Made by a program: the position numbers and the translations under genes | Part shown: piece after piece, positions 40,344-60,920 of the stretch | Position numbering within the stretch: the stretch's first letter is position 1 | Layout of the letters: every line of letters begins with the position of its first letter | Sequence record: OQ708376.1 | Length of the DNA: 64,000 bases | Direction: 5' to 3' (one strand) | Origin: Escherichia phage vB_EcoM_CRJP21 | Notes under the pieces: model-generated | Databases searched by the model: none | What the model was told of the DNA's origin: nothing | What the model saw: the letters and a program-made list of their open reading frames with translations, nothing else

Positions 40344-43300
40344 TTACTTAACTAATAATATATTTTTAATATCATTACCACTAACTTGTAGACTATCAGT
40401 GTATACTGAAAGATCTATAGTGTAACTATTTTGTGTGTAACGTTTTAACATATCATAATTACCTAAATTAATTCCATTGAAAGAATATGTAGTATTAAGT
40501 TTAAAATCATGTTCTGCACTATACATTACACCACGGAGTAAATTATTTGCATTTCTAACTTCAACTTTTTCATATCCAATCGATATAATATCATTCATGT
40601 TTGCGGCTGAACCGGATAAAACATTATTTCTAATACTATAAGGACTTATTGATTTAGGTTGAGAAACATAGGTTGTATTTTCTTCACTAATGGTTGTGAT
40701 GTTAGTAACAGTACCACCAACAACACCGATATACATACCGTCAACCATTGGGAATCCATAAACCCATATCCCTTCATTATTTCTAAACGGTTGAATAACA
40801 CTTGAATCATATTCGATAACGTTGATTTCTAAACTATCAGTCATTTTAGTTCTTGCCAATTCACTAAGAACTCCCGCACCCGTAATTGGTAAGTTATAAC
40901 CGTTATCGATAGTAATTCCATCAACATCAAATATTTCATTAGAGATTATCCAAACGTCAACGTCATCTGGTGTTATTCCGTCATTGTACTTACCACCATT
41001 TAAAGTAGTATCGTAGAAAACATCATAATTAATTACATCAATGGTGTAATTTCTATTTTGTTCATACAATTTAATACCATTCTTGACAAATTCAGGGTCA
41101 GCAAATGTTCTAACACGAACAATGTTCAATGCTAGAGGCTGTACTGGCTCATTTTGTTGTGCAAGAGTGATGTTATCATAACGGAGAACTGCACCAGTAC
41201 TCTCATCAATCAATTCAATCGTTTCCTTACCTGTATTTCTTACAGTGAATAGGATCGGAGTTGTATTGTTTTTGATGTTAGATACACGCAAGATTGTTTC
41301 CCATGTGTGATTTTGATATCTCACAAAATCTTCACCATCAGGAGTGAAAATCATCACCTTATCACCATCAGATAGGTCATTGTCAACTATTTCTGCTTCA
41401 GTTAAGCTATTAATAGATCTCACACGATAGAAATATTTTTCATCAAACTTCGATGTTGTTTTATTAATATCATTTTCAATCTTAGCATATGAAGGAATAC
41501 TTACAATTGCTTCTGTATGTTTATATGGATTGATAATTGCCATACCTTCAGTTTGATATCTGCTGTTATCACGTAATTGTACAAGAGATACATTGTCAAA
41601 CCCATATCCATCAACTGTAAATCTAATTTGACCTACATCACGCCCAGAAGGGTTTATGTCAGATATATCCACAATATAAGGATCAACTTCATCATCTTTA
41701 ACTTCCCATTTTATTGAAGAAGTTTGAGATTCCAATGCTAGGTTATCAAATGCATTCATATCATTGAAGTACTTAGCTTCAGTAATACTATCAAGTATAT
41801 ATTGATAATCAGAATACATTGGATTATTTTGATCTAGTGGTAAATCATCAAGATTTATTTCAGCTAGTTCAACCATTTCACCATTTGTGATAAAATAATC
41901 TTCCATGAAATCATCAATACTTTGTTCATCAGGTATACTTTGATATACACCGTTAACATTTAAGTAAACATATTTTCGTGGAATCATTGTAATTGCATAG
42001 ATATCAATTGGGGTCTTACTAAGAATCTCTTCAGCTTTTTCGTACTTATCAGTAGCGTCTTTGTCGAATAACCCTCTCATACCTGCTAATACGTGAATAG
42101 CATCAGTATAGAAACGGGTATCACCACCTACTTCATCATAACGATAAACATATACACCATACTCAACTTCAAGTTTAACTTTTACTTCATAGTCTGATGC
42201 GTCAGGATTTTTATCTTTAATTAATGAAATGTATTTTTGATACAATTCACTGCTTATTTCAAAATATCCATAGTTATAATCATTACTAGAAGAAAAGCCT
42301 AATGGAAGTCTAGTACTAGGATTGTCATTATAAGTAAGTCCACTAAATCCACATCCAACTTCATCGTGAATTTTCTCATCACTTATATCTTTATAAAGTT
42401 TCAAACGGTTTGCCAATGTGTTATACTGAACATATTGTCTAAGGTCAGTAAACATATCGTTATGCGTTGATTCTTTATAAACACGTTCCAATGTAGCAGT
42501 GAATTCATCAGTTGCTTCTAAATCTTCCGCATGGTCTTTATACCACTGGTTAACGCCATATGCTGTTCCTAGTGTTACATCCAATTCTGGATAGTAGATT
42601 TGCATTTGATAAGCAATAAGAAGATCGAAAGTTTCTTCACTATATTCTGGGAAAGAATATATATAACGTTGTAATTCATAGTTACTAACAGCATCCTTTT
42701 CATTGGATTGATATTTGTTATTAACACTTACTAATTCATTTATGCTTGCCAAATCTTCATTTGGTTTACACTGAATATTATCATAATGCATAATAATATC
42801 AATTTCTTGGAATCTTCTATTTGGTGTAACGAAATCACTTGGTAGTGAACCTACCTGTTCCCATTTTTGGGTAATTTCATTAAATTGAGCGTACTCATAA
42901 TCCCAAATATCTTTTTCAGTTTTGATCCAAGAACCATCAACGAAAATATATCCATTAGGATCTAAATCATTACATAGACCTTTTATTAAATCATCATCAG
43001 ATGTCTTTTGCTCTATTTGTGAACGAATTTTAGTTCTATAAGGTTTAACTTCTTCAAAATATTCAACAATTTGATTAATCAAATTATCGTTTGAATAGTT
43101 TTGAACTAATGATTGTTCCAAACCAACAATATAGATATATGATGTTTTAAATACCCAATCCACAACACTTTGTTCAACATGTACATATTTGACCATATCA
43201 AAAACAATTTCGCTTTGATGTAAATCGAAAGAATTTTTGAGTAAAGCTAGTGCTTTACGAACGTTGATTTCACGATTGCTTAGTGAACCATTATCATTAT

Positions 43301-46300
43301 GAACACTATAATCTGCGTAAAGCATATCATTGAGTTCAACTGTACTGTTTTCACGACCAATCGCTTTCCAATAAATTGAATCGCGTGATTGTGATTTAAT
43401 ATACAATGTCCAAATGTTTTCACTATCGGTAACTCTGATAATATCGCCAACTTGGTAGTTTTTAGTATTAGCATCTTCTAAGCTTGACTCTTGAGTATAA
43501 GTCGTGTTACTATCATATCCAACATCATACCAATCAGCATATGACCAGTACTGAGTCATGTCTAATGAGGTTCCTAGTGATTCAACATAATCAGATTGTT
43601 TAATCATTTTATGTTGTCCCTCACCTTTGTTTTCTAACGTTATAGTAACAACACTACCCGCGTTTGCTGGACTATTCATTAACTGAATATATCCATTTTC
43701 GTCGAAGTGAATAAAATAAACAGCACTAGAAGTTAATGGATTTGGTAGATATCCACTAGTACTTAAAATAACAGCGTCATTTTCTTTAAATTTATCACTT
43801 TCAACTGCAATAACTAATTCATTATTGTAAGACAACACACGGAAAGAAACTTCATTAGGGTTAACTTCAGTGGTTTTAACATTAAACACATCTTCCATAA
43901 CAACACTATTAGTGGTTATGTTTTGTGACCTATAATAATTATTAGCACTTTCTACAAAGTTTCTACGAGCTTCTATAACATTTTGGAACCAAGTTTTGTT
44001 TGATCCTAAACCGTTATCAACATCTGGATATAATAAATTAATCACAGAACCTGATTCAGTTGTTTCTTGACCAATTAGTGAGTTCCACATTGAATCCCAA
44101 ATTAGTGGGTTAAAGTTATAGCTGTCACCTTCTTTACATAGTTGATACTGGTCATGTTTAACAACTTCAGTACTATCCATGTAATAAGAAACAGTTAAAA
44201 TACTGGTATCATCATTCACTTTAAATTGCATATTACTAAGAATAAACGAGTTTTCATTTATTGGAGCGAACCAAGGAATGTTTAGCTGTGTTGGATCTTT
44301 AATAATACGAGCAATGTCAGTACATGATTTCGTTCTGGTATGTAGTGGTGGTACATAAATTGTATCACGTACCCAGAAATAGTATTTTGTTACATAACTA
44401 TCAGTTGAACTATCATATTCCAAAAATGTACTATAATTATCTTCAAGTGCAGTTCCACTTGGTAGATACATAGTATTATTTTTGTTTTTCTTAGCAACAT
44501 CTTTACAGTATTTGTCCCAGTTATATGGCTCAACTGGTGAACAAACCCACTCTAACACATCAATGGTACTATGTGGTAACAAACGGCCCCAGTTGTAACG
44601 TTTGTATTCATTGGTTGCATCAATATCAACATTACCGTCTGCGTCATAAATTGCACGAGTATAATCCAAATAAAATGCAGTGCTAGTGTTCCACCATACT
44701 TGACCAACTTTATCAGCACCCCAAGCCTGGATTAACTCTCCATTACTATTATACTGTGCAGGATCAACTGGTGAAGTATATGTTACGTTTTGCATAGCCG
44801 CACCTGGAATAACACCATTAATTGGGTCATAAACGTTTAGATATAGCTCAGTAATGTTAGTACGTTCATCATATGTCGTTGGACGATCAAATAAAGTACT
44901 TTGTGGTGCTTTAAAACTATATTTCTTGTCAATGTAAGCTTGACGATCATCAGTACTGGCAAAACGTGATACATAACGATACAAACGTGGACGTGTATCT
45001 GGATCAGTAAATTCAATATCAATAGAAGTGTCAAATGGAACTACCATAACTTTAGGATCAGAACCAGCAGTATAATATTGACTTTCTACTGTTAAAGTAT
45101 CTGGCATAAAGTTAGTTTCATCAACAAAATAATAATAATCACCATCTTCAAGTGGTACATTATCAGTTAAAGTTACTTTACAAAATTGTTCAGCATACAC
45201 ATCGGTATTTTCAATAGGTGTTATAGAAACCATTTGTACATTAGTATCAACCAATTCAAAAATGTTCCACAAACCATTACCGTCTTTAAACATCCACACA
45301 GATTCAGGATTTTCACCTTTACCATTAGTATAAGTTATGCGGTCATTATATGCAGTACTGAAATCTTTTGTTGTGTACGATACTTCATCCAATGTTACTG
45401 GACCAATATCTGGAAGTTGGATGTTTTCACTTCTTCCACTACGCATTGGGAATGAGAACTTACCATTTGGACGTGTAATCCAACGAGGATCTTTACCTTG
45501 CTCACCGAAGTATACAATATGATTACCATTACCATTTGAAGTTGCATTTACATCAAAAGAAACCATTTGAGGTTGTTGTTTAAATTGGTCATTGATTAGT
45601 TTAAATTGAAGGTTTTTCTTACCATCAATATTACCATATGTACCAATTTTAAATGCCCATTCTTGTAATGCTTTATATTCATCAGTGTCATATGATTTAG
45701 AAACACGAAGTACACGTTCTAAAACTTGGTTAGTACCTTTATCGTGAATGAATCCTTTATAGAAATCAACACGACTAACATCACTACTAATCATACGCTG
45801 TAGATAATCACGAGATTGATAACCAATCAAATGGTTTGACAACTCTTGTAATTGTACATCACTTACTGGAGTTTCACTATCATAATAATGTTGGAAATCC
45901 GACACTAATTTTTCAAATGATGGTAGTGTTCCAGCTTCCAAGATAATAAATCCAGGAGCTTGTAGGCGACCAGTCCATGAACCAGTAATATATCCATACA
46001 TTTTAATTAGTTCTTGAATAGAACCATATGTTGGCTGATAAATGTAATCACCAAAAATAGTTTTATCATCAAAAATAACAGCATGTTCATATGAACACAA
46101 ACTTAAACGAATCAATGCAATGCGTTTATTAGATTCTAAAGTTCTAACAGTGAAGATATTTCCAATACGAGAAGTTTCAATTTCATATTGGCGAATACCT
46201 TGGTTATTATCATCAAGTAATGACCATACACCACCATTATTTTGCGTAATAGATTGTACTGAACCAAAGTCTGCCCCAAATTTAGCGTTTGCAGCACTTG

Positions 46301-49300
46301 GGGTACAAGAAATAAATTCACCAGTTACTAGAGAATTCTGACTCCAGATCACGAAATCTTTAGCAATAGTGTTCCAATCTTGTTGAGCACCACTATCATT
46401 TACATCTTCAAAAATCCAACCATGTTCTTTAAGATATTCACCATATCCACAAATAAAAGTATAAACTTCTTGGTAACTATTGAAAACTTTACCATATTCA
46501 ATTGAAGCTTCAGACTTCCATTCATTATAATGAACAACATTACGGTTTTCCAATTTAAGAGTTACTTTTCTACCATTTTTTACTGGAAGTTTATATTTAA
46601 ATTTAGCACCAACTAGATCATATCCATCAATCTGATATGCACTACCATTCCAAGTAATTTTGATCGCACTCATTTGCTCATCACGGATATTATTAGAACG
46701 AACAAGACCAATGGTTTGGTTTTCTTGTGAAATAAGACCGAAAGATTTAGCATTGAATGTTAGCTGATCTGCTTTAGTAAATCCTCCAATTTTATGACCA
46801 ACATTTATATAAGAAGAACGAACTACATCCCCATACTTGGTGGTAATATTTTTATTTTGATACATCAAATGGTCACTTACAAACATTTGATAACCAATTG
46901 TTCTTGTGCTATTTTCACCATGAACTACTGTATTTTTATCAAAATTAATACGCTTACGTGTATCACCATAAAGGAATTGTGAACCATCAGTGAATACTTC
47001 TTTTAAGTTATCGTTGCGGGTATCCCAGAAATAGTTAGCAAATTGTGCTGGTTTAGCTTTATACAAAAGCATCATTTGGTCATATGCAAACAATGTAGTG
47101 TTCATGTATGTAAATTCCATGTCACCCATATCACCATATGTCCAAGGTTCTGCTCTATGATTTAAAGATCCAGACACTAAACCTAAAATTTCAGGTGCAA
47201 TATATTCAACCACACAAATATCAATACCAGAAGATGTTTTATTTCCAGTTTTTGTAATTTTGAATGGCTGTACACCAAATCTTTTATATTTGTCATATTG
47301 ACCACGACGATCACCAAATAAAATAGTTCCAGTACTGCTATCTCCAATAGTTCCGTCAATATCCCAAAGACCACTAGGAACTAAATCACCTTGCTCATTC
47401 ATAACAAGTGCTTCATATACATATACAACATCACTATCACGTTCACCAACTTGAACAGCCGTTGGTTCGTATTCTTGGTTCCACCAAGTTGGACGTTGTG
47501 TAAAGCCAAACATTTCCCACGGATGGGTAGCTGGGCGATATGTACCATATTGGTCAGTGTAAATGGCACGCCATGAACCACGTGCAGGAATTTCAGTACT
47601 TTGACCATTAACTACATAATAAGTGCCAGTATAGTTCCAAGTTCTCCAATTGTTAGGATCATAATCATGTGTACTATTACTGATACCATTAGTTGCGGTG
47701 AAGTTAATGTATCCACGTAGTAATAATGTTTGTTTCTCTTCAGCACTATATTCAGTTTTAGTGAAATATGGTGTAGGGAAAAGGTCATCACTATTCAATA
47801 CTGGTACGTAATCAACATCTTTGAATTTATTATCAATACTATTAAAAATTCTATTTTCTAATTCATATACAACATCATCCATTTTATCAACACCATTGAT
47901 AACACGGTATGCTTTGGAAATAATACCAGTATGACTGATGTTATAACAGCTTGGTTTACTACCAGCAGTGAGGAATGTCGCTTTTTCTGGTACATATGCT
48001 TGAAGAATACCTAAGAACTGTGGTGTTGGTGGTATAAATGCACGAATGAATCCAGAAGTACTTCCAACATTATCATAATAGAATGGGAATGAACTATCAC
48101 GTCCCATATTAATAGTAGTTAAAATTGCATCAACAATGTTTGCAGCACTATTTTGTAAAAAGTCTGATGGATTTTCATCATACATACGAAGCATTTGTGT
48201 ATTAAATTTATTAATGAATCTAAAATATTCAGATTGCATAAACATAGTTGCTTCAAACAAATCAATATCTTCATTTGCAGTATGTGCCATCAATGGAAGC
48301 ATAGATGCTTCATTTTGGATAATTTTAGTACCTACGCCATTATTAACCAATCCTTTAGCCAAACGTTCTTCATAGTCATTGAAATCATCAGAAGAACCAC
48401 GTGTAATGTTCTTTTGAATAATATCCTGAAAATGTAAAGTGTAGTCACCTTGGTTAATGTATATAATATTAGAATTATATGGGTTATTTTGTAGGTTGAT
48501 TGGAACTTCATATGCACCTAATTCTTTATTAGGAGTTACAGTACTGCTATAAGTTCTAATTTGAATAACAGAATCTTCATCCAATTCTACAGTACTATCT
48601 AGAGTGATGCTTTGTACTTGACCTTTTGAAACATTTTTGGTATATTTGGACACATCAACACCATCAACCACAACTTCAATAATATCAGAATCATTATCTA
48701 AAACTTTTTGTGCCAATTCGAATGTATGGTCATATTTTACAATCTGAACACCATCACCAGTAATTGGATGCCAATCTAGATAAGTTTCACGGTCAGCTTT
48801 ATAGTACTGATATGTTCTATCAACTTCAATAACATATGCATACATACCATCAACTGGTTCTTTAAAAACTTCCATATCATAAACAGTACTGAATACACGA
48901 TACATATCAGTACGTTGGACTTGTGGAGTTTGTTTTACAAATTGTTTAGAGTACTCTTCTGAACGAACCCAATCGGTTTGAAGATTCATTTCATTATTTT
49001 CATCAATAATGTTATAATAGTATAAACCATCAATTTCAACTTCTTTTCCAAGATGGTCATAGGTATAACGTTGGGATTGTAAAAAGTTTTCATAAATGTA
49101 ATAATTATAATCACCAAGTTCAATGTTATATCCATATACACTATCAGTTGCATAGTTGTAATTTATTTTAAAACCAAACAACTCTGAACCTTTAAAGTTA
49201 CTTGATGGATATGTAGTACTGTTGTCAAGTTTGATACCATTACGATCATAAAGTTGGAATTTAGGGAATACGTTAACACTAGTTTTTGATTGTGCACGAA

Positions 49301-50315
49301 CCCACAAAGATCCATTCCAGTACATAGAACTATTACCATACTCATTACCTTTAGTGATTAGAACAACATCACCATCTTGAGGTTCACCACTTGGGCGTGA
49401 TTCGGTTTCTTCTTCTGGATCTAGTGCTAAACCATAAACACGAGTACCATCTTGCATTTTTTTCACATATACATTATAAATTCTATTGTTTTCACCATTG
49501 TTACCAATACTGGTGAATAGAATACGCATTCCATCTTGCGGAATAATACCATCAATACGTATACCACTATTAATATCTTTTTGAACGATATCTTCAGGTT
49601 TAATAATATCAGAGAACAGATCAACAGTTCCACGGAATTTTGTACCGTAGTTAATTAGCTCAATATTTTTATTATATTCAATAATTGGTGCACGTGCACG
49701 AATAAAACGTGAATCTTGCATTAATTCTTCAGTTAATATTGAGCCATCTTCTAATGTTTCACCTAAAGTATACCAAAAGTTTTGTAGTGACCATGTATTA
49801 CCATTAAGTGCTCCACGTTCCATTACAATGTAATCAGGTGAAGTAATATTATAAGAGTTTTTAGTATCCCAAAGATATGAGCTAAAATTGTTCATTTTAT
49901 TTGGGTTAATAGCTGGAGTCCATGCATAAAACTTACCGTTGAACAAACGGCTTTCATTATCGGTTAGTGCTCCATAATGATTCATGTATCCAACTAGATC
50001 ATCATAAAATTGAATTGAACGAATTGTCGAATCATCATTTTTTGAGACGTAAGCAGTGGACAACTGATAAAGTTGACGTGCTACAGTACTTTCATGTAAG
50101 AAGATATTACCAGCAGCGGCAGGAGAACCCATATCACCAATATAGCCGTCAACTAATTCGTTTTCAGCCGGATTAAACCATTGTTGAATAACATCATCAC
50201 TGACTTTTTGAATATCTTCTAAGCCTTGCATCCACTCAGGCAATCTTTTAATAAAAAGCTTCTTCTGTACTGCTTCAGCCATCTGTGTAGGTTGAAACTT
50301 AAAATTATTAGTCAT
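40344..50315 (-). CDS. Giant virion-associated structural protein (baseplate/fibre-associated?)
   Basis: 3323 aa from the ATG at 50315 (GGAG RBS; the track ORF starts 10 codons upstream); uninterrupted ORF immediately downstream of the gp6-like and gp25-like genes on the same strand; N/Y/D/T-rich composition without an obvious catalytic motif. Confidence 0.55.
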   Translation of the reverse strand: MTNNFKFQPTQMAEAVQKKLFIKRLPEWMQGLEDIQKVSDDVIQQWFNPAENELVDGYIGDMGSPAAAGNIFLHESTVARQLYQLSTAYVSKNDDSTIRSIQFYDDLVGYMNHYGALTDNESRLFNGKFYAWTPAINPNKMNNFSSYLWDTKNSYNITSPDYIVMERGALNGNTWSLQNFWYTLGETLEDGSILTEELMQDSRFIRARAPIIEYNKNIELINYGTKFRGTVDLFSDIIKPEDIVQKDINSGIRIDGIIPQDGMRILFTSIGNNGENNRIYNVYVKKMQDGTRVYGLALDPEEETESRPSGEPQDGDVVLITKGNEYGNSSMYWNGSLWVRAQSKTSVNVFPKFQLYDRNGIKLDNSTTYPSSNFKGSELFGFKINYNYATDSVYGYNIELGDYNYYIYENFLQSQRYTYDHLGKEVEIDGLYYYNIIDENNEMNLQTDWVRSEEYSKQFVKQTPQVQRTDMYRVFSTVYDMEVFKEPVDGMYAYVIEVDRTYQYYKADRETYLDWHPITGDGVQIVKYDHTFELAQKVLDNDSDIIEVVVDGVDVSKYTKNVSKGQVQSITLDSTVELDEDSVIQIRTYSSTVTPNKELGAYEVPINLQNNPYNSNIIYINQGDYTLHFQDIIQKNITRGSSDDFNDYEERLAKGLVNNGVGTKIIQNEASMLPLMAHTANEDIDLFEATMFMQSEYFRFINKFNTQMLRMYDENPSDFLQNSAANIVDAILTTINMGRDSSFPFYYDNVGSTSGFIRAFIPPTPQFLGILQAYVPEKATFLTAGSKPSCYNISHTGIISKAYRVINGVDKMDDVVYELENRIFNSIDNKFKDVDYVPVLNSDDLFPTPYFTKTEYSAEEKQTLLLRGYINFTATNGISNSTHDYDPNNWRTWNYTGTYYVVNGQSTEIPARGSWRAIYTDQYGTYRPATHPWEMFGFTQRPTWWNQEYEPTAVQVGERDSDVVYVYEALVMNEQGDLVPSGLWDIDGTIGDSSTGTILFGDRRGQYDKYKRFGVQPFKITKTGNKTSSGIDICVVEYIAPEILGLVSGSLNHRAEPWTYGDMGDMEFTYMNTTLFAYDQMMLLYKAKPAQFANYFWDTRNDNLKEVFTDGSQFLYGDTRKRINFDKNTVVHGENSTRTIGYQMFVSDHLMYQNKNITTKYGDVVRSSYINVGHKIGGFTKADQLTFNAKSFGLISQENQTIGLVRSNNIRDEQMSAIKITWNGSAYQIDGYDLVGAKFKYKLPVKNGRKVTLKLENRNVVHYNEWKSEASIEYGKVFNSYQEVYTFICGYGEYLKEHGWIFEDVNDSGAQQDWNTIAKDFVIWSQNSLVTGEFISCTPSAANAKFGADFGSVQSITQNNGGVWSLLDDNNQGIRQYEIETSRIGNIFTVRTLESNKRIALIRLSLCSYEHAVIFDDKTIFGDYIYQPTYGSIQELIKMYGYITGSWTGRLQAPGFIILEAGTLPSFEKLVSDFQHYYDSETPVSDVQLQELSNHLIGYQSRDYLQRMISSDVSRVDFYKGFIHDKGTNQVLERVLRVSKSYDTDEYKALQEWAFKIGTYGNIDGKKNLQFKLINDQFKQQPQMVSFDVNATSNGNGNHIVYFGEQGKDPRWITRPNGKFSFPMRSGRSENIQLPDIGPVTLDEVSYTTKDFSTAYNDRITYTNGKGENPESVWMFKDGNGLWNIFELVDTNVQMVSITPIENTDVYAEQFCKVTLTDNVPLEDGDYYYFVDETNFMPDTLTVESQYYTAGSDPKVMVVPFDTSIDIEFTDPDTRPRLYRYVSRFASTDDRQAYIDKKYSFKAPQSTLFDRPTTYDERTNITELYLNVYDPINGVIPGAAMQNVTYTSPVDPAQYNSNGELIQAWGADKVGQVWWNTSTAFYLDYTRAIYDADGNVDIDATNEYKRYNWGRLLPHSTIDVLEWVCSPVEPYNWDKYCKDVAKKNKNNTMYLPSGTALEDNYSTFLEYDSSTDSYVTKYYFWVRDTIYVPPLHTRTKSCTDIARIIKDPTQLNIPWFAPINENSFILSNMQFKVNDDTSILTVSYYMDSTEVVKHDQYQLCKEGDSYNFNPLIWDSMWNSLIGQETTESGSVINLLYPDVDNGLGSNKTWFQNVIEARRNFVESANNYYRSQNITTNSVVMEDVFNVKTTEVNPNEVSFRVLSYNNELVIAVESDKFKENDAVILSTSGYLPNPLTSSAVYFIHFDENGYIQLMNSPANAGSVVTITLENKGEGQHKMIKQSDYVESLGTSLDMTQYWSYADWYDVGYDSNTTYTQESSLEDANTKNYQVGDIIRVTDSENIWTLYIKSQSRDSIYWKAIGRENSTVELNDMLYADYSVHNDNGSLSNREINVRKALALLKNSFDLHQSEIVFDMVKYVHVEQSVVDWVFKTSYIYIVGLEQSLVQNYSNDNLINQIVEYFEEVKPYRTKIRSQIEQKTSDDDLIKGLCNDLDPNGYIFVDGSWIKTEKDIWDYEYAQFNEITQKWEQVGSLPSDFVTPNRRFQEIDIIMHYDNIQCKPNEDLASINELVSVNNKYQSNEKDAVSNYELQRYIYSFPEYSEETFDLLIAYQMQIYYPELDVTLGTAYGVNQWYKDHAEDLEATDEFTATLERVYKESTHNDMFTDLRQYVQYNTLANRLKLYKDISDEKIHDEVGCGFSGLTYNDNPSTRLPLGFSSSNDYNYGYFEISSELYQKYISLIKDKNPDASDYEVKVKLEVEYGVYVYRYDEVGGDTRFYTDAIHVLAGMRGLFDKDATDKYEKAEEILSKTPIDIYAITMIPRKYVYLNVNGVYQSIPDEQSIDDFMEDYFITNGEMVELAEINLDDLPLDQNNPMYSDYQYILDSITEAKYFNDMNAFDNLALESQTSSIKWEVKDDEVDPYIVDISDINPSGRDVGQIRFTVDGYGFDNVSLVQLRDNSRYQTEGMAIINPYKHTEAIVSIPSYAKIENDINKTTSKFDEKYFYRVRSINSLTEAEIVDNDLSDGDKVMIFTPDGEDFVRYQNHTWETILRVSNIKNNTTPILFTVRNTGKETIELIDESTGAVLRYDNITLAQQNEPVQPLALNIVRVRTFADPEFVKNGIKLYEQNRNYTIDVINYDVFYDTTLNGGKYNDGITPDDVDVWIISNEIFDVDGITIDNGYNLPITGAGVLSELARTKMTDSLEINVIEYDSSVIQPFRNNEGIWVYGFPMVDGMYIGVVGGTVTNITTISEENTTYVSQPKSISPYSIRNNVLSGSAANMNDIISIGYEKVEVRNANNLLRGVMYSAEHDFKLNTTYSFNGINLGNYDMLKRYTQNSYTIDLSVYTDSLQVSGNDIKNILLVK

Positions 50316-50351
50316 TTTTGGACTCCATATAATTCGTTCATTCATTTGATT

Positions 50352-54368: not shown

Positions 54369-54857
54369 TTATACGGATTCAACAATACGTGCCATCTTTT
54401 CCGCTCTTGAAGTGGTTTGTTTATACCATGTACTATCACGCAATTCCTTACCAGCAGTTTTATAATCAGCCTTACCTAATGCGGTCATTGCTTTTTTAAA
54501 TTTTAAAACTTTGGTTTTTCCCATCTGGAATACCATCAACCATAATACACGTTGAACCTGTACAGGTGCGGTCATACCAAATTGTTCATAAATTGATTTT
54601 GCATCATTGTACGCAGTTTGAGCATCTTTAAGAAGAAGTTGGTCAGCTTGTGCTTCTGTTAAACCATTCTTGAAATTTTCACCAGGTAAAACTAGGTGAC
54701 CATAGCCAATAGTATCAAGACCTAAGCTGTCTTTATATACCCAAAACTTATCATTTTTAAAATAACCAAGTTTTTTCTGATAAGCAATAGTTCCTTCAAA
54801 TTCTTTAATTTCCTTAAAAAATTGCTCATCTGTATTTTTAATTTCCCATTTACTCAT
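54369..54857 (-). CDS. Endolysin, T4 lysozyme (GH24)-like
   Basis: 162 aa; EFEG...YKDSLGLDTIGYGHL supplies the catalytic Glu/Asp/Thr triad pattern of T4 lysozyme; MVFQMGKTKVLKF...W..QT.SRA..MARI matches T4L MVFQMGETGVAGF...WYNQTPNRAKRV. Confidence 0.8.
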   Translation of the reverse strand: MSKWEIKNTDEQFFKEIKEFEGTIAYQKKLGYFKNDKFWVYKDSLGLDTIGYGHLVLPGENFKNGLTEAQADQLLLKDAQTAYNDAKSIYEQFGMTAPVQVQRVLWLMVFQMGKTKVLKFKKAMTALGKADYKTAGKELRDSTWYKQTTSRAEKMARIVESV

Positions 54858-54873
54858 AAAGATATCCTCGTTT

Positions 54874-54881
54874 TATTTATA
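54874..54881 (-). promoter_or_regulatory. T4-type late promoter (TATAAATA) upstream of the endolysin gene
   Basis: Perfect TATAAATA on the minus strand 16 nt upstream of the ATG, with a GAGGA RBS between them. Confidence 0.45.
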
Positions 54882-54893
54882 GTACTAAAATAT

Positions 54894-57557
54894 TTATTGA
54901 CATGCCTCTAAACGACGAGCCATTAACTCAGCACGGCGAGTAGTTTGGCGATACCAAGCTGAATTACGTATTTGAGCAGCAGCTTGTTTATAATTACCTT
55001 TAGCTAATTCAGACAACATAGTTTTAAATTTAAGTACCCCACCTTTACCCATCTGGAATACCATTTGGCATAGTACTTGTTGAGCCAAATAAGGTGTTTT
55101 CATGTTGTATGAAGCATAAATTGATTTAGCATCATATATAGCTTTACTACTATCACGAACTAACATATCGTTGGCTTGCTGTTCAGTTATTCCATCTGAA
55201 AAGTTTTCACCACTAATAATTAAGTGACCATAACCAATAGTTGGATACCCACGACTATCCAAATAACGCCAGAATTTACCATTACGATAATATCCTTTTG
55301 CTTGTTGGTATTGTAATGTACCTTCATATTCTTTTAATTCAGAAATAAATTGTGCATCACCTGGAACAACTTTCCAATCGATTGCAGTTTTATCAACATT
55401 TCCAATATTATAGGTAGGTTGCTCCACCGGAGTTGTTGAAGCTCCACTTCTCTGTGTTCTTCTCCTACGAGGCACATGACGAGAACCACGTTGAGAATAT
55501 CCAGTACCTATCGTTTTGATTTTTGTTGTAACTACCAATTCATCACTATCAACTGAAGGTTGTACAACTGCTTTTGGAGCAGATTGATTAGTTGCTTGAC
55601 CACCAATTAATGTTTTATTCGCCGCATCAGACCCTGTTCCTGTTTGTGAAGCATAAAATAATCCTGGGTCAACAGAACCACTGAATCCAAGAACATTTGC
55701 TGATGTAACACGAATTTCAAACTGTATGACACCATTTGCTTTTCCAACAACTTGACCTTTTTGAACAACATCTTTGTTTAATAAATCAGATTGAATATTA
55801 TAAAAAATAGATTTATATCCAGACTTATGTTGTATTAAAAGAGCACCATTAGTAATTACTACCACACCACCATCTGGTGCAACTACATCACCTTTACATT
55901 GTATTTCCCAACCTGAACGGTCTGCCTTTCCTCCACTTTGTGTTGGAACACCTTTCCCCCAGTAACCATATTGTCGAATAGTACCGCTACATGGCATTAA
56001 CATATGTAAACCTTCATATGTAATACTATATCCAGTCATCCCAGGATCAGATGTCATCAAATCTTGTGATTGAACTTGTTCAGTTTCTGATGTATAGTTA
56101 ACAAACTGAACAGCTTCAGTGTCTTGTGCTACGGGTAATTCTGGTGATACATCATTTGCTGGTTGTGGTTGTACTGGTGATTCACTAGAACCACTTCCAC
56201 CACCTTGTCTTGGTGGTTCAACATAACTACCATGATTTTCAGCGTTAACCCATGCAGCAATATCATGAATGTGTTCATTAAGACCAGCAGATGGTGTTCT
56301 AAAGTTTGGTGCAGTAAATTCAGCAGTACCGCTATTACCACCACTATTAACTGTTAATGTTTGACCACCACCACTAATAATTGCTGATGATGATCCAATT
56401 AGGTTTGCAGATGTTGCGGCAGAAATAGAAGCATTTGAACCAGCCGTAATATCAGTACTGCTACCACTTTGCATACGTAATGATGCAGCAGTAACTAAAC
56501 GAAGGTCTGCCCCAGAATTAACAACAACTTGTCCACCAACTTTTGCATCAAGAGCACCAATTAGATCTAATTTAGTATTTGCACCAACTCGTGCATTGAA
56601 ATCTTGTCCGGTTTCAATATTATATGAACGTCCAGCAGTAATATTAATATCTTGACCAGCACGAATATTAATATTCTTATCACAGTGCATGTCAATATCA
56701 CCTTCACCAGTGAATTTTATACGTGCAGTGCCATCACGATTAATTAAAAGAACATCACCAGTAGCTTCTGATAAAAGAAGTTGTGCACCACTACGTGTTT
56801 TTATTACGACACCTTCATTTTTACGAGAACCAACACGTGTATCGTTTACTGGGTTATTAAATTGTGTATCTTGATATCCATCTGGGTCTTGATCCCACGT
56901 TGGTGCTGTTAATTCCTCTTCAGTATATCCATCATCAATAATAAAACTATTACCACGTGGCGAAGACATACCATATACAGTACTGGTGGTTTGTCGAGTA
57001 CTACTACGATTCGCCAACCCAGCTTCTTCGTCATATAAAAGGTTTTGCTTTTTAAGACCTGCGATAATTGGAACGTTAGCATATTTGTCTTGCATATCGG
57101 TAGTGATAGTGTTACGATCATAGTCAGTAACAGGAAGTGGCATATCAGTTCCACCATAATTACTTACTTCAGTTGCCATACCTGGAACCATCGTATTCAT
57201 ACGCTGGTCATATACACAACCAATCCAATATGCTTGGAATGTACGGGCTTGTGCAAAAATTACAACAACTGTACACCCTACGTCTGGTGGTACTGCCCAA
57301 AAACCGTATCCTTTTGGATATTGACCATATGCATCAGCACTTGGAATACCTGGTGTTTTACCAGCAAAAGGAGACATGTAAGATGCTTCTATCCATGATT
57401 CTTTTGAGTTTTTATCACTTTGAGAACCTTGTATCCAAACTTTCAGTTTTCCTGATTTAGTTGGATCTCTGTTATCCATAACAGTTGCTAACTGCGGATA
57501 AGATGGGTCAAAACGACCCAACTGCTGTTGTGCATACTTTTTACTTGTATCTGCCAT
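54894..57557 (-). CDS. Baseplate central spike / hub protein (gp5-like) with C-terminal GH24 lysozyme domain
   Basis: 887 aa; N-terminal gp5/VgrG-type OB-fold pattern (KSGKLKVWIQG...GYGFWAVPPDVGCTVVVIF...AYWIGCV); middle beta-helix-like repeats (NINIRAGQDINITAGRSYNIETGQDFNARVGANT...); degenerate M23-like segment; C-terminal T4-lysozyme-like domain (EYEG...YLDSRGYPTIGYGHL...MVFQMGKGGVLKF) paralogous to the adjacent endolysin. Confidence 0.75.
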   Translation of the reverse strand: MADTSKKYAQQQLGRFDPSYPQLATVMDNRDPTKSGKLKVWIQGSQSDKNSKESWIEASYMSPFAGKTPGIPSADAYGQYPKGYGFWAVPPDVGCTVVVIFAQARTFQAYWIGCVYDQRMNTMVPGMATEVSNYGGTDMPLPVTDYDRNTITTDMQDKYANVPIIAGLKKQNLLYDEEAGLANRSSTRQTTSTVYGMSSPRGNSFIIDDGYTEEELTAPTWDQDPDGYQDTQFNNPVNDTRVGSRKNEGVVIKTRSGAQLLLSEATGDVLLINRDGTARIKFTGEGDIDMHCDKNINIRAGQDINITAGRSYNIETGQDFNARVGANTKLDLIGALDAKVGGQVVVNSGADLRLVTAASLRMQSGSSTDITAGSNASISAATSANLIGSSSAIISGGGQTLTVNSGGNSGTAEFTAPNFRTPSAGLNEHIHDIAAWVNAENHGSYVEPPRQGGGSGSSESPVQPQPANDVSPELPVAQDTEAVQFVNYTSETEQVQSQDLMTSDPGMTGYSITYEGLHMLMPCSGTIRQYGYWGKGVPTQSGGKADRSGWEIQCKGDVVAPDGGVVVITNGALLIQHKSGYKSIFYNIQSDLLNKDVVQKGQVVGKANGVIQFEIRVTSANVLGFSGSVDPGLFYASQTGTGSDAANKTLIGGQATNQSAPKAVVQPSVDSDELVVTTKIKTIGTGYSQRGSRHVPRRRRTQRSGASTTPVEQPTYNIGNVDKTAIDWKVVPGDAQFISELKEYEGTLQYQQAKGYYRNGKFWRYLDSRGYPTIGYGHLIISGENFSDGITEQQANDMLVRDSSKAIYDAKSIYASYNMKTPYLAQQVLCQMVFQMGKGGVLKFKTMLSELAKGNYKQAAAQIRNSAWYRQTTRRAELMARRLEACQ

Positions 57558-57570
57558 AATATTTTATTCC

Positions 57571-59820
57571 TTAATCAACTATACTATCGTGACGTTTGAG
57601 TGCACGAATTACAATTGCAGCTTGAATTTGTTGTGTAAAAGAACCACCTGCACCAAAATCATGAACAATTTTATTAACACGATAAATTGTTTGGTTAAAT
57701 GTGGTTGGTGTATTAATATCCAAAACACCAGTGTTATCATTTATTGATATTACTGGTTGTAATTTTAGTAATAGATACGCTTCAGATGTTATATAATTTG
57801 CTACATGATAATCATCTGGGTTAATTTCCATATCTTCACCATTAATTACTTGTTCTAGATATTGTAAGTAAGAGTAATCACTCCACCCTAACCAGTACGG
57901 GTCGCCTACTACACGCATATCGAGTTTACACAAAAAAGGTCTATTGTAATAGTTGTCACGTATTTTACGTCTATCCATTTCATATGTGCTGCTGTTATCG
58001 TTTAACGAAGCGGATAAAGTTGTTTCATTGTTAGTTGCTTCAGTTGGCATTGTGAACACTTCACCATAACGGTGACCAACACCATCAGTACCGCCATCGT
58101 TTTCTTCATAAGTGGTTACATAATCCTCAATATATTGAGGTAAAACATTGACTTGATAGTTATTATAACGGTCTTGTTCTTCTGCGTTACCAACCTGCAT
58201 TTGATTTTTTGCTAAAGTTTCAACTTCAGTTAACAATTGTTGTTGGGCTTGTGTTAACATCCCTCCTAAATCACGAGTTACACGTAAATCACTTGTTTTT
58301 GCCCATGCGTCTGGTATACTATTGTATTGTACACCTTGAATATTGAGTTCTTGGGATGTATGTGTACCTGCATGGTTCGCTACATCTTGTATCGGACCAG
58401 GGTTACGTGTAGTGGCTACGAAAAATTGCTGATCAAATTTCAAATCCAAATCAAGTATCTCACTATTAAGCCCACTAAATTGATAATTATAAGTTTTCAT
58501 GTTTATTTTTGGTTTTTGATCATTAGGATCTACGTATTTTTCTGCGTTCTCAAAAAAGTACTCAAATGTGAAATTTTCAGGTTGTAAATCCGATTCATGA
58601 ACAATATCACCTATTTTAAATCTAACAATATAAAAAATTACTTTATAAACAGAAGTATTACGATAATTATCAAAACCAACGTATTGTTTAACTGGTATAA
58701 TGTTTACAAATTGACGCACACTAGTACTATCATCGGCTTGTACAGTACATGTATCAATAACGTCATCAATAATTCGAGATATAGGAGTACTTGGGTTCCA
58801 TGAAAAGTTTTTAGAACCTTGTGCACCACTTTTAGTTGTTCCGGCCTCTGCCATTTGTTTAGAATCATAGTTTATAAACAAATCTTGCAAATCAGGTGCT
58901 ACTTTAAATTCGAAAAATTTACCTTCGGATAATTCACCAAATTTATATCTAAGATAACCATATTGTTGGTCAGCCATCTGATTTAATTTATCTTCTAAAT
59001 CAAAGCAGAAGTCACCAAAGTTTTCAGCAGTACAATTGAATGGTTCTTTTAAGGTCCATTCAATGTTATCAACTAAAGCTGCTCTATTATGAACTAAGTT
59101 CATAGTATACATCATAGTACTACCACTTTGTGAAGCACTTGCAGTAACACTATTAATTTTAACTGACCAGCGTCTTGTTGTTTCTGGGATAATTTCAGGT
59201 ATTCCATTTTTATTAAAGCCAATAAACTTTAATTCCAAGATCAATGGCAAGTCCATAAATTTATGATATCTAAGTTTGTTACTTAACGAAATTAATTCAT
59301 CATATAGACTCATACTATTATTTTCAGACATATTAAGTACTGCTGTATTAAAACAATAGTTTGTTGTCATTCCTGGTGTTGAAGGTCCAGCTTGTGTCAT
59401 TTGTACACTAGTGATATTATATTTGCCAGTAACACCACTTTCTGATATCACATGTCGTTGCACTTCTGCATCTGGGTAAAGCCAAAAGTTTTTAAAATCA
59501 TCTTTATCTAAGGCAAATAAACAAAAGTGCCAAGTTGGGTTATCATATTTCAATAATTTATTGTCATACGGTATTACAAACTGACTTAAATCGAGATCTT
59601 CATAAACTTGATCAACACTAGCACTTTGTTTTGGTAATGATACTACATTACTTACATTTGCTTTGTAATTATTTTTTGTAATAGTTTTTACATCATTTTG
59701 TAATGTATTTGCTGTAGCTTTCAAACTATCAAGTGCATTAGATGTGGTGGTTTTAGCCTTACCAGTAATACTTGTAATATCATTTTGAAAATTATCAACT
59801 GTACTTCGTAAATCTGCCAT
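57571..59820 (-). CDS. Putative baseplate hub or tail-associated structural protein
   Basis: 749 aa immediately upstream of the gp5-like gene on the same strand; GGAGT RBS; N-terminal coiled-coil-like region; no motif recognised. Confidence 0.4.
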   Translation of the reverse strand: MADLRSTVDNFQNDITSITGKAKTTTSNALDSLKATANTLQNDVKTITKNNYKANVSNVVSLPKQSASVDQVYEDLDLSQFVIPYDNKLLKYDNPTWHFCLFALDKDDFKNFWLYPDAEVQRHVISESGVTGKYNITSVQMTQAGPSTPGMTTNYCFNTAVLNMSENNSMSLYDELISLSNKLRYHKFMDLPLILELKFIGFNKNGIPEIIPETTRRWSVKINSVTASASQSGSTMMYTMNLVHNRAALVDNIEWTLKEPFNCTAENFGDFCFDLEDKLNQMADQQYGYLRYKFGELSEGKFFEFKVAPDLQDLFINYDSKQMAEAGTTKSGAQGSKNFSWNPSTPISRIIDDVIDTCTVQADDSTSVRQFVNIIPVKQYVGFDNYRNTSVYKVIFYIVRFKIGDIVHESDLQPENFTFEYFFENAEKYVDPNDQKPKINMKTYNYQFSGLNSEILDLDLKFDQQFFVATTRNPGPIQDVANHAGTHTSQELNIQGVQYNSIPDAWAKTSDLRVTRDLGGMLTQAQQQLLTEVETLAKNQMQVGNAEEQDRYNNYQVNVLPQYIEDYVTTYEENDGGTDGVGHRYGEVFTMPTEATNNETTLSASLNDNSSTYEMDRRKIRDNYYNRPFLCKLDMRVVGDPYWLGWSDYSYLQYLEQVINGEDMEINPDDYHVANYITSEAYLLLKLQPVISINDNTGVLDINTPTTFNQTIYRVNKIVHDFGAGGSFTQQIQAAIVIRALKRHDSIVD

Positions 59821-59831
59821 ACGTTACTCCA

Positions 59832-60146
59832 TTAGCCTATGTTTCGAGTACCATTAAGATAATTCTGTACTCTTTGATTTGCTGGTATTCTAATTGTTAC
59901 TCCACTTTTAAAATTATATATAGGATCTTCTCCTAGTATGTCTGGATTTAACAATGCGAAAATATAATATAAGCGTTCATTACCATACATTTCGTATGCT
60001 AAACGCCAAGGTTGATATTCATATTTCAATGGGATCTCATAAAAATCATCAGTATCAGCCGGAACAATATCACGTGGTAAATTATACCCAAGATACCATG
60101 TTTGTTTCACCTTAGCGTAAGGTGAGTATTGACTATAGTTGGACAT
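59832..60146 (-). CDS. LysM-like baseplate protein (gp53 / P2 gpX-like)
   Basis: 104 aa; AGGAGG RBS; YEIPLKYEYQPWRLAYEMYGNERLYYIFALLNPDILGEDPIYNFKSGVTIRIPA fits the LysM-like tail protein X pattern (..a..YG......l...Np.......l..G..l.IP). Confidence 0.45.
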   Translation of the reverse strand: MSNYSQYSPYAKVKQTWYLGYNLPRDIVPADTDDFYEIPLKYEYQPWRLAYEMYGNERLYYIFALLNPDILGEDPIYNFKSGVTIRIPANQRVQNYLNGTRNIG

Positions 60147-60877
60147 TAAATGAATCCTCCTTTACGTAATAGTTCACCACGTTTGAATGCATTGAGGTTG
60201 AACGTTTTAGTCATATAATCCGATGTTGGCTGTTCTTCAAGTTGTAACATAACTGAGATTTTTTGTGGAACCCAAACTTCATCTTGTGGGTTCATATATC
60301 CAGTACTTCTAAGTTGTTCGAAGAATTTTCTACTATCCATGTCGGATAAATTAAAAGTACTATCGCTACTATTCAACGGAACTTGAATATAAGAAACATC
60401 ATTTGGGTAAGTAAAATTATAAGATTTTAAAATAACAGGAATATCATTATATGTATAACGACCATATCCACTTAGAAGTAAGATTGGTGGTGGTGCACCT
60501 GCAATTGCGAGTTCGGGGTTATTAGCCGAAGCAGCTTGTCTACCAAAATCCATCAACGAAACAGAACGTATAAAATGAACACATGCCAACGCATACATAG
60601 CTTCTGCTGCTGTATTCGCATAAAATTCACCCTGAATCGTGAAAACTGTATTAGTAGTGTTCTTATAGTTGTTATAGTTACTGTTAGTATGTATAGGGGA
60701 CTGTGTTTCATACTGAATTGACCTTTGTTCAGTAATTGTTGGTGTTACAGTCCAAACCAACCCATTAGTTGGACGCAGAAACGAAAGTAGAGTTGGTTCG
60801 GAGCTATCTCCAAAATCACCATATACATAGTTAGCACCTGCGGCTTTAGGTCGTAATCGAATTCTACGATCAATCAT
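60146..60877 (-). CDS. Putative baseplate structural protein
   Basis: 243 aa from the ATG at 60877 (GGAGAA RBS; the track ORF extends 30 codons further upstream); stop overlaps the start of the LysM-like gene (ATGTCCAACTAT... on minus strand). Confidence 0.4.
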   Translation of the reverse strand: MIDRRIRLRPKAAGANYVYGDFGDSSEPTLLSFLRPTNGLVWTVTPTITEQRSIQYETQSPIHTNSNYNNYKNTTNTVFTIQGEFYANTAAEAMYALACVHFIRSVSLMDFGRQAASANNPELAIAGAPPPILLLSGYGRYTYNDIPVILKSYNFTYPNDVSYIQVPLNSSDSTFNLSDMDSRKFFEQLRSTGYMNPQDEVWVPQKISVMLQLEEQPTSDYMTKTFNLNAFKRGELLRKGGFI

Positions 60878-60912: not shown

Positions 60913-60920
60913 TATTTATA
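60913..60920 (-). promoter_or_regulatory. T4-type late promoter (TATAAATA) for the baseplate operon
   Basis: Perfect TATAAATA on the minus strand about 36 nt upstream of the ATG at 60877. Confidence 0.5.

Follow-up and report, generated by a model that had tools for sequence, protein, structure and literature searches.

What kind of spike protein carries a lysozyme at its very end, behind a domain that has the fold of a peptidase but not its catalytic residues, and how did a second lysozyme gene come to lie next to it? These questions are raised by two genes in a 64,000-nucleotide (nt) stretch (the window) of the genome of Escherichia phage vB_EcoM_CRJP21 (sequence record OQ708376.1): an open reading frame (ORF) for a protein of 887 amino acids, here called the hub protein, and an adjacent ORF for a stand-alone lysozyme of 162 amino acids (Table 1). 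A first-pass annotation of the sequence had likened the hub protein to gp5 of T4 and had suggested that the neighboring lysozyme arose by a recent duplication or shuffling of domains. Our analysis indicates instead that the hub protein is best read as a spike of the gpV/VgrG type with enzyme cargo at its C-terminus, that its M23-like domain is a genuine LytM fold that is degenerate throughout the family, and that the duplication of the lysozyme is old.

The Core of the Hub Protein Is Probably of the gpV/VgrG Type

The order of elements in the hub protein is OB fold, beta-helix, HxH element, linker, LytM/M23-fold domain, linker, and GH24 lysozyme. Pfam, profile, and fold searches thus bore out the domains listed in the first-pass annotation and the order given for them, as well as the statement that this order is unlike that of T4 gp5, in which the lysozyme is central (residues 190–326 of 584 in structure 1k28). 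What that list had left out is an invariant HxH between the beta-helix and the M23-like domain. The hub protein matches PHROG 13211 over its full length and is a component of the virion; its orthologs gp241 of phAPEC6 and CBB_240 of Pectobacterium phage CBB have been seen in virions by mass spectrometry (for CBB, PMC5259590).

The OB fold is of the gp5/VgrG type, as judged by its match to PF04717 (E 8e-7; 29.8 bits against a cut-off of 23.8), and it is followed, as in gpV-type spikes, by a triple-stranded beta-helix. In a phmmer search the OB region matched VgrG 9jg8 (E 9.6e-6), and for the N-terminal 460 residues the closest solved structures by sequence are VgrG spikes of type VI secretion systems (T6SS; 9jg8, E 9.6e-6; 4uhv, E 1.3e-3). 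To follow conservation along the protein, we used an alignment of 87 full-length homologs with identities down to 37%, to which the counts for the hub protein given below refer. Between the OB fold and the beta-helix lies a highly conserved region for which AlphaFold2 gave moderate confidence (predicted local distance difference test [pLDDT] 54–84) and whose invariant columns include P125, P142, R148, Q171, D176, R188, P200, R201, D208–G210, and W221. The model of the full-length protein, computed as a monomer, had a mean pLDDT of 79, with confident domains separated by low-confidence stretches at residues 420–460, 501–511, 662–664, and 700–719.

Directly after the helix come H429 and H431, which are invariant in all 87 homologs, with H433 kept in 70 and H442 in 81 of them. 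According to a study of P2 gpV, an HxH is the only sequence feature that is universally conserved among central spikes, where it forms the iron-binding histidine cage of the apex, whereas T4 gp5 and other spikes without an HxH have a PAAR protein as their cap; HxH cages are also found internally in phage fibers (bioRxiv 10.1101/2023.02.25.529910). By extension from this motif, H429 and H431 may bind iron or another metal. Since the HxH stands between the beta-helix and the M23-like domain, the protein reads as a spike of the gpV/VgrG type with a C-terminal extension and not as a permuted gp5.

A set of metagenomic proteins (P0095, P0099, P0107, P0110, and P0115) is more distantly related to the core and has only the OB fold and the beta-helix in common with the hub protein. 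Some of these carry a GH24 lysozyme or a GH19 chitinase-like domain as C-terminal cargo and others, of about 500–600 amino acids, carry none, which shows a modular design of spike plus cargo. Some of the shorter relatives have a motif, SLxxLxGHxH, about 95 residues before the C-terminus.

The M23-Like Domain Is a LytM Fold without a Peptidase Active Site

The first-pass annotation had held that the M23-like barrel lacks the catalytic HxH motif, and it had named the alternative that the region might be just beta-helix. The second idea was ruled out by profile, Pfam, and fold searches, all of which led to an M23/LytM fold. When a profile of residues 500–645 from 20 homologs was compared with solved chains, it matched SpoIIQ (E 6.7e-7) and LasA (E 2.1e-6), and also zoocin A, DipM, Pgp3, and EnvC. 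PF01551 was matched by 19 of the 20 homologs at E ≤ 1 (best E 5.9e-11), and about 13 full-length homologs have a precomputed match to this family; the PBECO4-type query segment itself scored E 1.1e-4 (22.8 bits, below the gathering score of 28.7). An AlphaFold2 model of the domain alone reached a pLDDT of 86, and in a Foldseek search of the PDB with this model EnvC and DipM came first with their LytM domains, ahead of many active M23 enzymes. A structural search of BFVD returned many phage M23 proteins.

Enzymes of the M23 family are defined by the motifs H(x)nD and HxH, together with a further histidine about 30 residues upstream of the HxH (PMC9662197). The catalytic positions are lost across the family. 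The query has R and E at positions 547 and 551, the equivalents of the H(x)nD pair; among the homologs the histidine position is Arg in 71 and His in five, and the aspartate position is Ile in 50 and Asp in two. The position of the upstream histidine, 587, is occupied by D, G, or N and by His in none of the 87. The loop that should bear the HxH is about nine residues shorter than that of SpoIIQ, and its aligned positions, 611 and 612, are never His; they fall within GKANGVIQFEIRV (residues 605–617), the stretch that the first-pass annotation had placed opposite the HxH. The residues W550, G580, R616, G624, G627, D630, G632, and F634 of the domain are invariant, and this combination of a lost active site with invariance elsewhere argues for purifying selection for a role other than that of a peptidase. 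The segment is thus a genuine LytM fold that is degenerate throughout the family, and, having the M23 fold with none of the catalytic features, it groups with the degenerate LytM folds.

Two linkers flank the domain. In the first, AlphaFold2 predicted a strand (residues 478–486) and a helix (490–499), with low pLDDT at 420–460 and 501–511. In the second, I683, R690, G691, S692, and P696 are invariant or nearly so, and pLDDT falls below 50 at residues 700–719. The conserved motif of this linker, IGSGYSQRGSxxxP, is followed by a basic stretch (together residues 683–700, positions 55458–55511 on the minus strand) that is RRRR in PBECO4 and dibasic in many but not all homologs. The motif and the basic stretch may be a site of processing or docking.

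The Two Lysozymes Are Old Paralogs

Both lysozymes belong to family PF00959, with scores of 45.2 bits for the C-terminus of the hub protein and 37.0 bits for the 162-residue protein against a cut-off of 22.3 (for the latter, E 5e-9), and in both of them residues equivalent to E11 and D20 of T4 lysozyme align. In the hub domain these residues, E745 and D767, are kept in 86 of the 87 homologs, and the equivalent of T26 is Thr in 61. The catalytic residues of the hub domain thus look intact, and lysozyme activity is predicted for it.

The first-pass annotation had called the downstream gene a clear paralog of the lysozyme domain, and the comparison agrees: the 162-residue protein is 53% identical to hub residues 728–885 over 158 amino acids without a gap (E 3e-57), whereas each of the two is only about 29% identical to T4 lysozyme, from which we conclude that they are genuine paralogs. 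That the pair was produced by a recent duplication or by shuffling between the virion-associated lysin and an endolysin is a different matter. The genes are adjacent, the proteins align without gaps, and both have an insertion of 13–14 residues (GTxxYQxxxGYFxNxKFW) that separates the catalytic Glu from the catalytic Asp and that T4 lysozyme lacks, as might be expected of a recent event. At the DNA level, however, the codon-aligned genes are only 60% identical, with 52.5% identity at third positions, 11 of 26 four-fold sites equal, and a longest exact run of 17 nt, values that indicate saturation of synonymous sites. The order hub gene, 162-residue lysozyme gene, gp25-like gene is found, moreover, in five phage lineages, three of them in named genera: PBECO4 (Asteriusvirus), Klebsiella phage Muenster (Alcyoneusvirus), Salmonella phage PHA46, Erwinia phage Kaldavass, and Serratia phage BF (Eneladusvirus). 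The stand-alone orthologs of these phages are 60%–78% identical to one another and the hub lysozyme domains 49%–73%, as compared with about 52% for paralogs of the same genome, and in a neighbor-joining tree the five stand-alone copies form one clade, separate from the hub domains, with 93% bootstrap support. (Rooting varied among replicates and made deeper bootstrap values unreliable, and so only this clade and shallow nodes were used.) Nor is the insertion a mark of recent copying. It is common to a third paralog in these phages, described below, and to the endolysin of the T5-like Pantoea phage AAS21 (L007:4501–4998), and is therefore a trait of a GH24 subfamily, which also lacks a segment of about 15 residues that follows the GYGH motif in T4 lysozyme. 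Judged by saturation, conserved order, and the separate clade, the duplication is old, and we reject a recent origin of the pair as highly improbable.

In Muenster, two small hypothetical ORFs on the opposite strand and a predicted terminator lie between the hub gene and the stand-alone lysozyme gene (L003:3492–4384, minus strand), which shows that the pair is not always contiguous.

What the stand-alone protein does is less plain. The first-pass annotation had called it an endolysin; it is indeed a GH24 lysozyme, but the label of endolysin is unproven, and it is a third paralog that has been published as the candidate. Searches with tblastn found three lysozyme places per genome in most Rak2-like phages, although none of the third kind within the 64-kb window. 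In phAPEC6 the third copy is gp293c, whose GH24 domain is 36% identical to the 162-residue lysozyme. Its ortholog in CBB, CBB_187 (with homologs gp532 of 121Q and gp506 of RaK2), is a predicted endolysin, possibly of the signal-arrest-release type, and was toxic on induction (PMC5259590).

As read from its sequence, the 162-residue protein has no hydrophobic N-terminus and so would reach the wall only with the help of a holin. Outside the clade, the protein closest to it, at 44% identity, is the AAS21 lysozyme, whose gene adjoins that of a holin. A protein named LysUE1, from phage UE-S1, was cloned with primers that match the start of the 162-residue gene, and the purified protein lysed E. coli, working best with ethylenediaminetetraacetic acid (EDTA; PMC12805682). 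The protein is most simply taken as a soluble late muramidase that would function in lysis alongside the membrane-anchored paralog.

Late-Promoter-Like Motifs Precede the Lysozyme Gene and Other Late Genes

The downstream gene had also been credited with a perfect late promoter of its own, TATAAATA. The motif is present, 17 nt before the ATG, but it does not set the gene apart, because the 7-mer ATAAATA precedes many late genes. The full motif is depleted in the window (two copies against 10.4 expected), and both copies are intergenic and upstream of late genes. ATAAATA, which has been put forward as the motif of late promoters in CBB and GAP32 (PMC5259590), occurs 14 times (at positions 210, 272, 3346, 4188, 7057, 7582, 19194, 32264, 32305, 50352, 53915, 54874, 54891, and 60913). 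Eleven of these copies fall within non-coding DNA, which makes up 5.6% of the window; the remaining three precede the next start by 29–44 nt. Most are 29–59 nt before a start codon, with a typical spacing of about 35 nt; for the copy at 4188 the spacing was counted to the annotated start at about 4220 (locus L002), a crude gene call having given 763 nt through a longer ORF. A chance match was ruled out by the position of both copies of TATAAATA, and of 11 of the 14 copies of ATAAATA, in non-coding DNA just upstream of genes, and on the strength of that placement we accept TATAAATA as a promoter-like motif. At the lysozyme gene the usual spacing (34 nt) belongs to the 7-mer that overlaps the stop codon of the hub gene and not to the perfect 8-mer at 17 nt. 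These motifs would be expected to act as promoters, and the late-promoter-like element of the lysozyme gene is routine, several neighboring late genes being preceded likewise.

The Genes Lie in a Baseplate Operon

The 3.2-kb stretch that holds the two genes is 99.9% identical to the corresponding DNA of Escherichia phage PBECO4, a Rak2-like jumbo myovirus of the genus Asteriusvirus with a genome of about 348 kb, and 95%–99.9% identical to that of 121Q, phAPEC6, JP4, UB, and others. Both genes are within a baseplate operon that encodes gp531, a gp53-like protein, a 749-residue structural protein, the hub protein, the lysozyme, a gp25-like protein, a gp6-like wedge protein, and a giant structural protein (Table 1). 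The giant protein is encoded downstream of the gp6-like wedge gene by an ORF for 3333 amino acids (40344–50345, minus strand). The gene for the 749-residue virion protein (57571–59820, minus strand) is immediately upstream of the hub gene; its product has no Pfam match and could be a gp27-like partner of the hub protein.

Table 1. Coordinates of the hub gene, its domains, and neighboring features (positions in the window unless another locus is named)
Feature	Position	Strand	Remarks
Spike/hub ORF	54894..57557	-	887 amino acids; in the ORF list, in exact agreement with the first-pass annotation
OB-fold domain, gp5/VgrG type	57210..57491	-	Residues 23-116; PF04717 (Phage_base_V)
Highly conserved region between OB fold and beta-helix	56808..57209	-	Residues 117-250
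Beta-helix	56292..56807	-	Residues ~251-422; Pfam DUF2345 (VgrG-type) at 278-329
Putative apex/His-cage element	56223..56291	-	Residues ~423-445; H429-x-H431
First linker, Gly/Ser/Pro-rich with a small structured element	56025..56222	-	Residues 446-511; sequence GGGSGSSESPVQPQPAN; linker GGGSGSSESPVQPQP...
Degenerate LytM/M23-fold domain	55638..56024	-	Residues ~512-640; catalytically dead
Second linker	55386..55637	-	Residues 641-724; conserved IGSGYSQRGS...P motif and Arg-rich stretch RRRR at 697-700
C-terminal GH24 lysozyme domain	54897..55385	-	Residues 725-887; Pfam Phage_lysozyme at 765-882
Hub-lysozyme junction	54858..54897	-	36-nt spacer (54858-54893) and hub stop codon; two late-promoter-like motifs
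ATAAATA	54891-54897	-	Overlaps hub stop codon; 34 nt before lysozyme ATG
TATAAATA	54874-54881	-	17 nt before lysozyme ATG
Stand-alone soluble GH24 lysozyme	54369..54857	-	162 amino acids; coordinates likewise agree exactly with the first-pass annotation; PBECO4 gp535; ortholog of LysUE1
First baseplate-operon gene	60146..60877	-	Hub gene presumably co-transcribed from here
TATAAATA, second copy	60913..60920	-	36 nt upstream of first baseplate-operon gene, in the intergenic region adjoining the sigma-factor gene
gp55-like late sigma factor gene (PBECO4 gp530)	61009..61848	+	Divergent from baseplate operon; common 131-nt intergenic region
Third GH24 paralog (phAPEC6 gp293c)	L002:37101-38027, outside window	-	308 amino acids; hydrophobic N-terminal anchor, LysM, GH24

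A Model for the Spike and Its Cargo

We consider it likely that, in a Rak2-like jumbo myovirus, the hub protein serves as the central spike that pierces the membrane, with a dead LytM domain and a GH24 lysozyme as its cargo, and that the gene next door encodes an ancient soluble paralog of that lysozyme. Three copies of the protein would form a spike with a core of the VgrG/P2 gpV type, composed of the OB fold, a trimeric beta-helix, and a histidine cage at the HxH element, from which the extension of about 440 residues, containing the non-catalytic LytM domain and the lysozyme, would hang on flexible linkers. Upon contraction of the tail, the spike would cross the outer membrane and three copies of the extension would reach the periplasm; there, as the example of T4 gp5 suggests, the lysozyme would open the peptidoglycan locally for the tail tube. 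The dead LytM domain would most likely be a binding module that targets or holds peptidoglycan, or that docks or restrains the lysozyme or another partner, and would have no role as a peptidase. The 162-residue lysozyme, for its part, would most likely take part in holin-dependent lysis or serve as an accessory muramidase beside the membrane-anchored LysM–GH24 paralog. Some observations weigh against parts of this picture. Iron binding is proposed from the motif, which lies 12 residues from the C-terminus in P2 gpV as compared with 456 in the hub protein; the beta-helix and the apex were poorly modeled (pLDDT about 48–66 at residues 420–460), as AlphaFold2 was run on a monomer; and the 162-residue gene is not part of a lysis cassette, its neighbors being the genes for the hub and the gp25-like wedge protein, with no holin or spanin gene adjacent.

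The absence of an adjacent holin is one of the reasons for thinking that the 162-residue lysozyme might instead be a low-copy component of the baseplate or an assembly factor, sitting, for example, at the side position that is held in T4 by the lysozyme domain of gp5. In all five lineages the gene keeps its place in the baseplate operon, with the hub gene on one side and the gp25-like gene on the other, and it is another paralog that is the published endolysin candidate. Yet the protein is absent from the published virion proteomes of phAPEC6 and CBB, in which the hub and gp25-like proteins were found (for CBB, PMC5259590), its nearest outside relative is the holin-associated lysozyme of a T5-like phage, and its recombinant ortholog acts as a typical endolysin against Gram-negative bacteria, in need of EDTA (PMC12805682). 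We therefore regard a structural role as unlikely. A second possibility, compatible with the spike model and to which we give somewhat more credence while still doubting it, is that proteolysis cuts off or frees the C-terminal extension, either while the virion matures or upon infection, as is the case for T4 gp5 or the lactococcal protein Tal2009. The HxH apex would then be the end of the mature spike, and the LytM–lysozyme piece would be attached only non-covalently or lost. A Gly-rich linker (GGGSGS, with the near-invariant G452) directly after the apex would suit such a cut, as would the second linker with its conserved motif and RRRR stretch; the apex is C-terminal in spikes of the P2 type (bioRxiv 10.1101/2023.02.25.529910); and coverage of the hub protein by mass spectrometry of virions was low (9.9% in phAPEC6 and 4.1% in CBB; for CBB, PMC5259590). 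In the other direction, the extension is full-length in 86 homologs, an argument for its functioning within the virion protein, and phage fibers have internal HxH cages (bioRxiv 10.1101/2023.02.25.529910).

A bolder idea concerns the LytM domain itself, which might mimic EnvC and NlpD by binding the amidases AmiA, AmiB, and AmiC in the periplasm and relieving their auto-inhibition, so that host amidases would thin the wall beside the phage lysozyme; or it might attach in some other way to the host's cell-wall machinery where the phage enters. The LytM domain of EnvC is among the best matches to the domain in structure, and degenerate LytM folds act as interaction modules (PMC9662197). EnvC, NlpD, DipM, and SpoIIQ, however, are regulators in the bacterial periplasm whose partner domains are coiled coils or LysM, and activation of an amidase by the phage domain is hypothetical. 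We judge such mimicry to be quite improbable; were it true, a virion protein would for the first time be seen to hijack the mechanism by which the host activates its autolysins.

Comparison with Known Spikes and Virion Hydrolases

The finding is real but largely known. Buttimer et al. (2017) described CBB_240 as a protein that has a gp5 OB domain at the N-terminus, possibly an M23 domain in the center (pfam01551, E 6.5e-4), and a lysozyme at the C-terminus, unlike T4 gp5, and noted an adjacent T4-type lysozyme whose structural status was unconfirmed, and they stated this layout for other Rak2-like phages (PMC5259590). CBB_240 and CBB_239 are orthologous to the hub protein and the lysozyme and have the same order. 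The genes are annotated, too, in PBECO4 and its sequenced relatives (43 phage records). With the layout published for CBB, the genes annotated, and the small lysozyme assayed, this is not a new system. The CBB paper is silent on the loss of the M23 catalytic residues, on the HxH element, and on the age of the duplication; what is added here is that the M23 active site has been lost throughout the family, that there is an HxH element, that the duplication, as read from sequence comparison, is old, and that these phages have three GH24 paralogs. These points should be of use in annotation, in the engineering of lysins from such phages, and in the reading of a future cryo-electron microscopy map of a Rak2-like baseplate, of which a limited literature search turned up no study.

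T4 resembles the present system in that a single spike protein unites OB fold, GH24 lysozyme, and beta-helix and that the genome encodes a separate soluble GH24 paralog, and the presumed function, local digestion of peptidoglycan during penetration, would be alike. In T4 the genes for gp5 and for the gene e lysozyme are far apart, whereas the two genes here are adjacent. In gp5, moreover, the lysozyme is between the OB fold and the beta-helix, whereas in the hub protein it comes last, after the HxH and the dead LytM domain. The chain of gp5 ends with the helix, whose cap is the PAAR protein gp5.4 (bioRxiv 10.1101/2023.02.25.529910), but the helix of the hub protein is followed by the invariant HxH and about 456 residues (PAAR genes were not searched for in the window). 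P2 gpV and spikes of the phi92 gp138 type are similar to the hub protein in their OB fold, their beta-helix, and the HxH after it, which is absolutely conserved; the apex of gpV (residues 191–211), however, ends the protein.

Degenerate and active hydrolase folds are known from other proteins. EnvC, NlpD, DipM, and SpoIIQ have an M23 fold without zinc or catalytic residues and supplied the top structural and profile matches to the LytM domain; no paper discussing a degenerate LytM domain in a phage spike turned up in a limited literature search. Protein gp13 of phi29 joins an M23 domain with a lysozyme-type domain. Both gp13 and Tal2009 of phage Tuc2009 bear an M23-fold domain on a virion protein of the tail tip, but these domains are active endopeptidases of phages with Gram-positive hosts, and that of the hub protein is dead (PMC9662197). 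A further likeness is to the clip domain in phage 812's weld protein, a dead peptidoglycan-hydrolase fold in the baseplate core that was proposed to retain binding, although this is a CHAP fold and not M23, in a different protein and in a phage with a Gram-positive host (PMC13433997). A comparison with an M23 "cleaver" domain on the spike of phage 812 was dropped, the paper describing instead a CHAP domain on the hub protein (PMC13433997).

A similar design is that of the "evolved" VgrG proteins of the T6SS, in which enzyme cargo is fused after the beta-helix; VgrG proteins are also the closest solved relatives of the core by sequence. VgrG-3 of Vibrio cholerae is an evolved VgrG with a peptidoglycan-degrading domain. 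Unlike VgrG, the hub protein has no fused gp27-like N-terminal domain (its OB fold begins at residue 23), and it is a protein of a phage virion and not of a secretion system. In design the hub protein resembles an evolved VgrG more than a permuted gp5, yet it is not a member of the VgrG group. It is best read as a probable gpV/VgrG-type spike with an HxH and C-terminal enzyme cargo, within a wider set of spikes whose cargo is GH24, GH19, or none.

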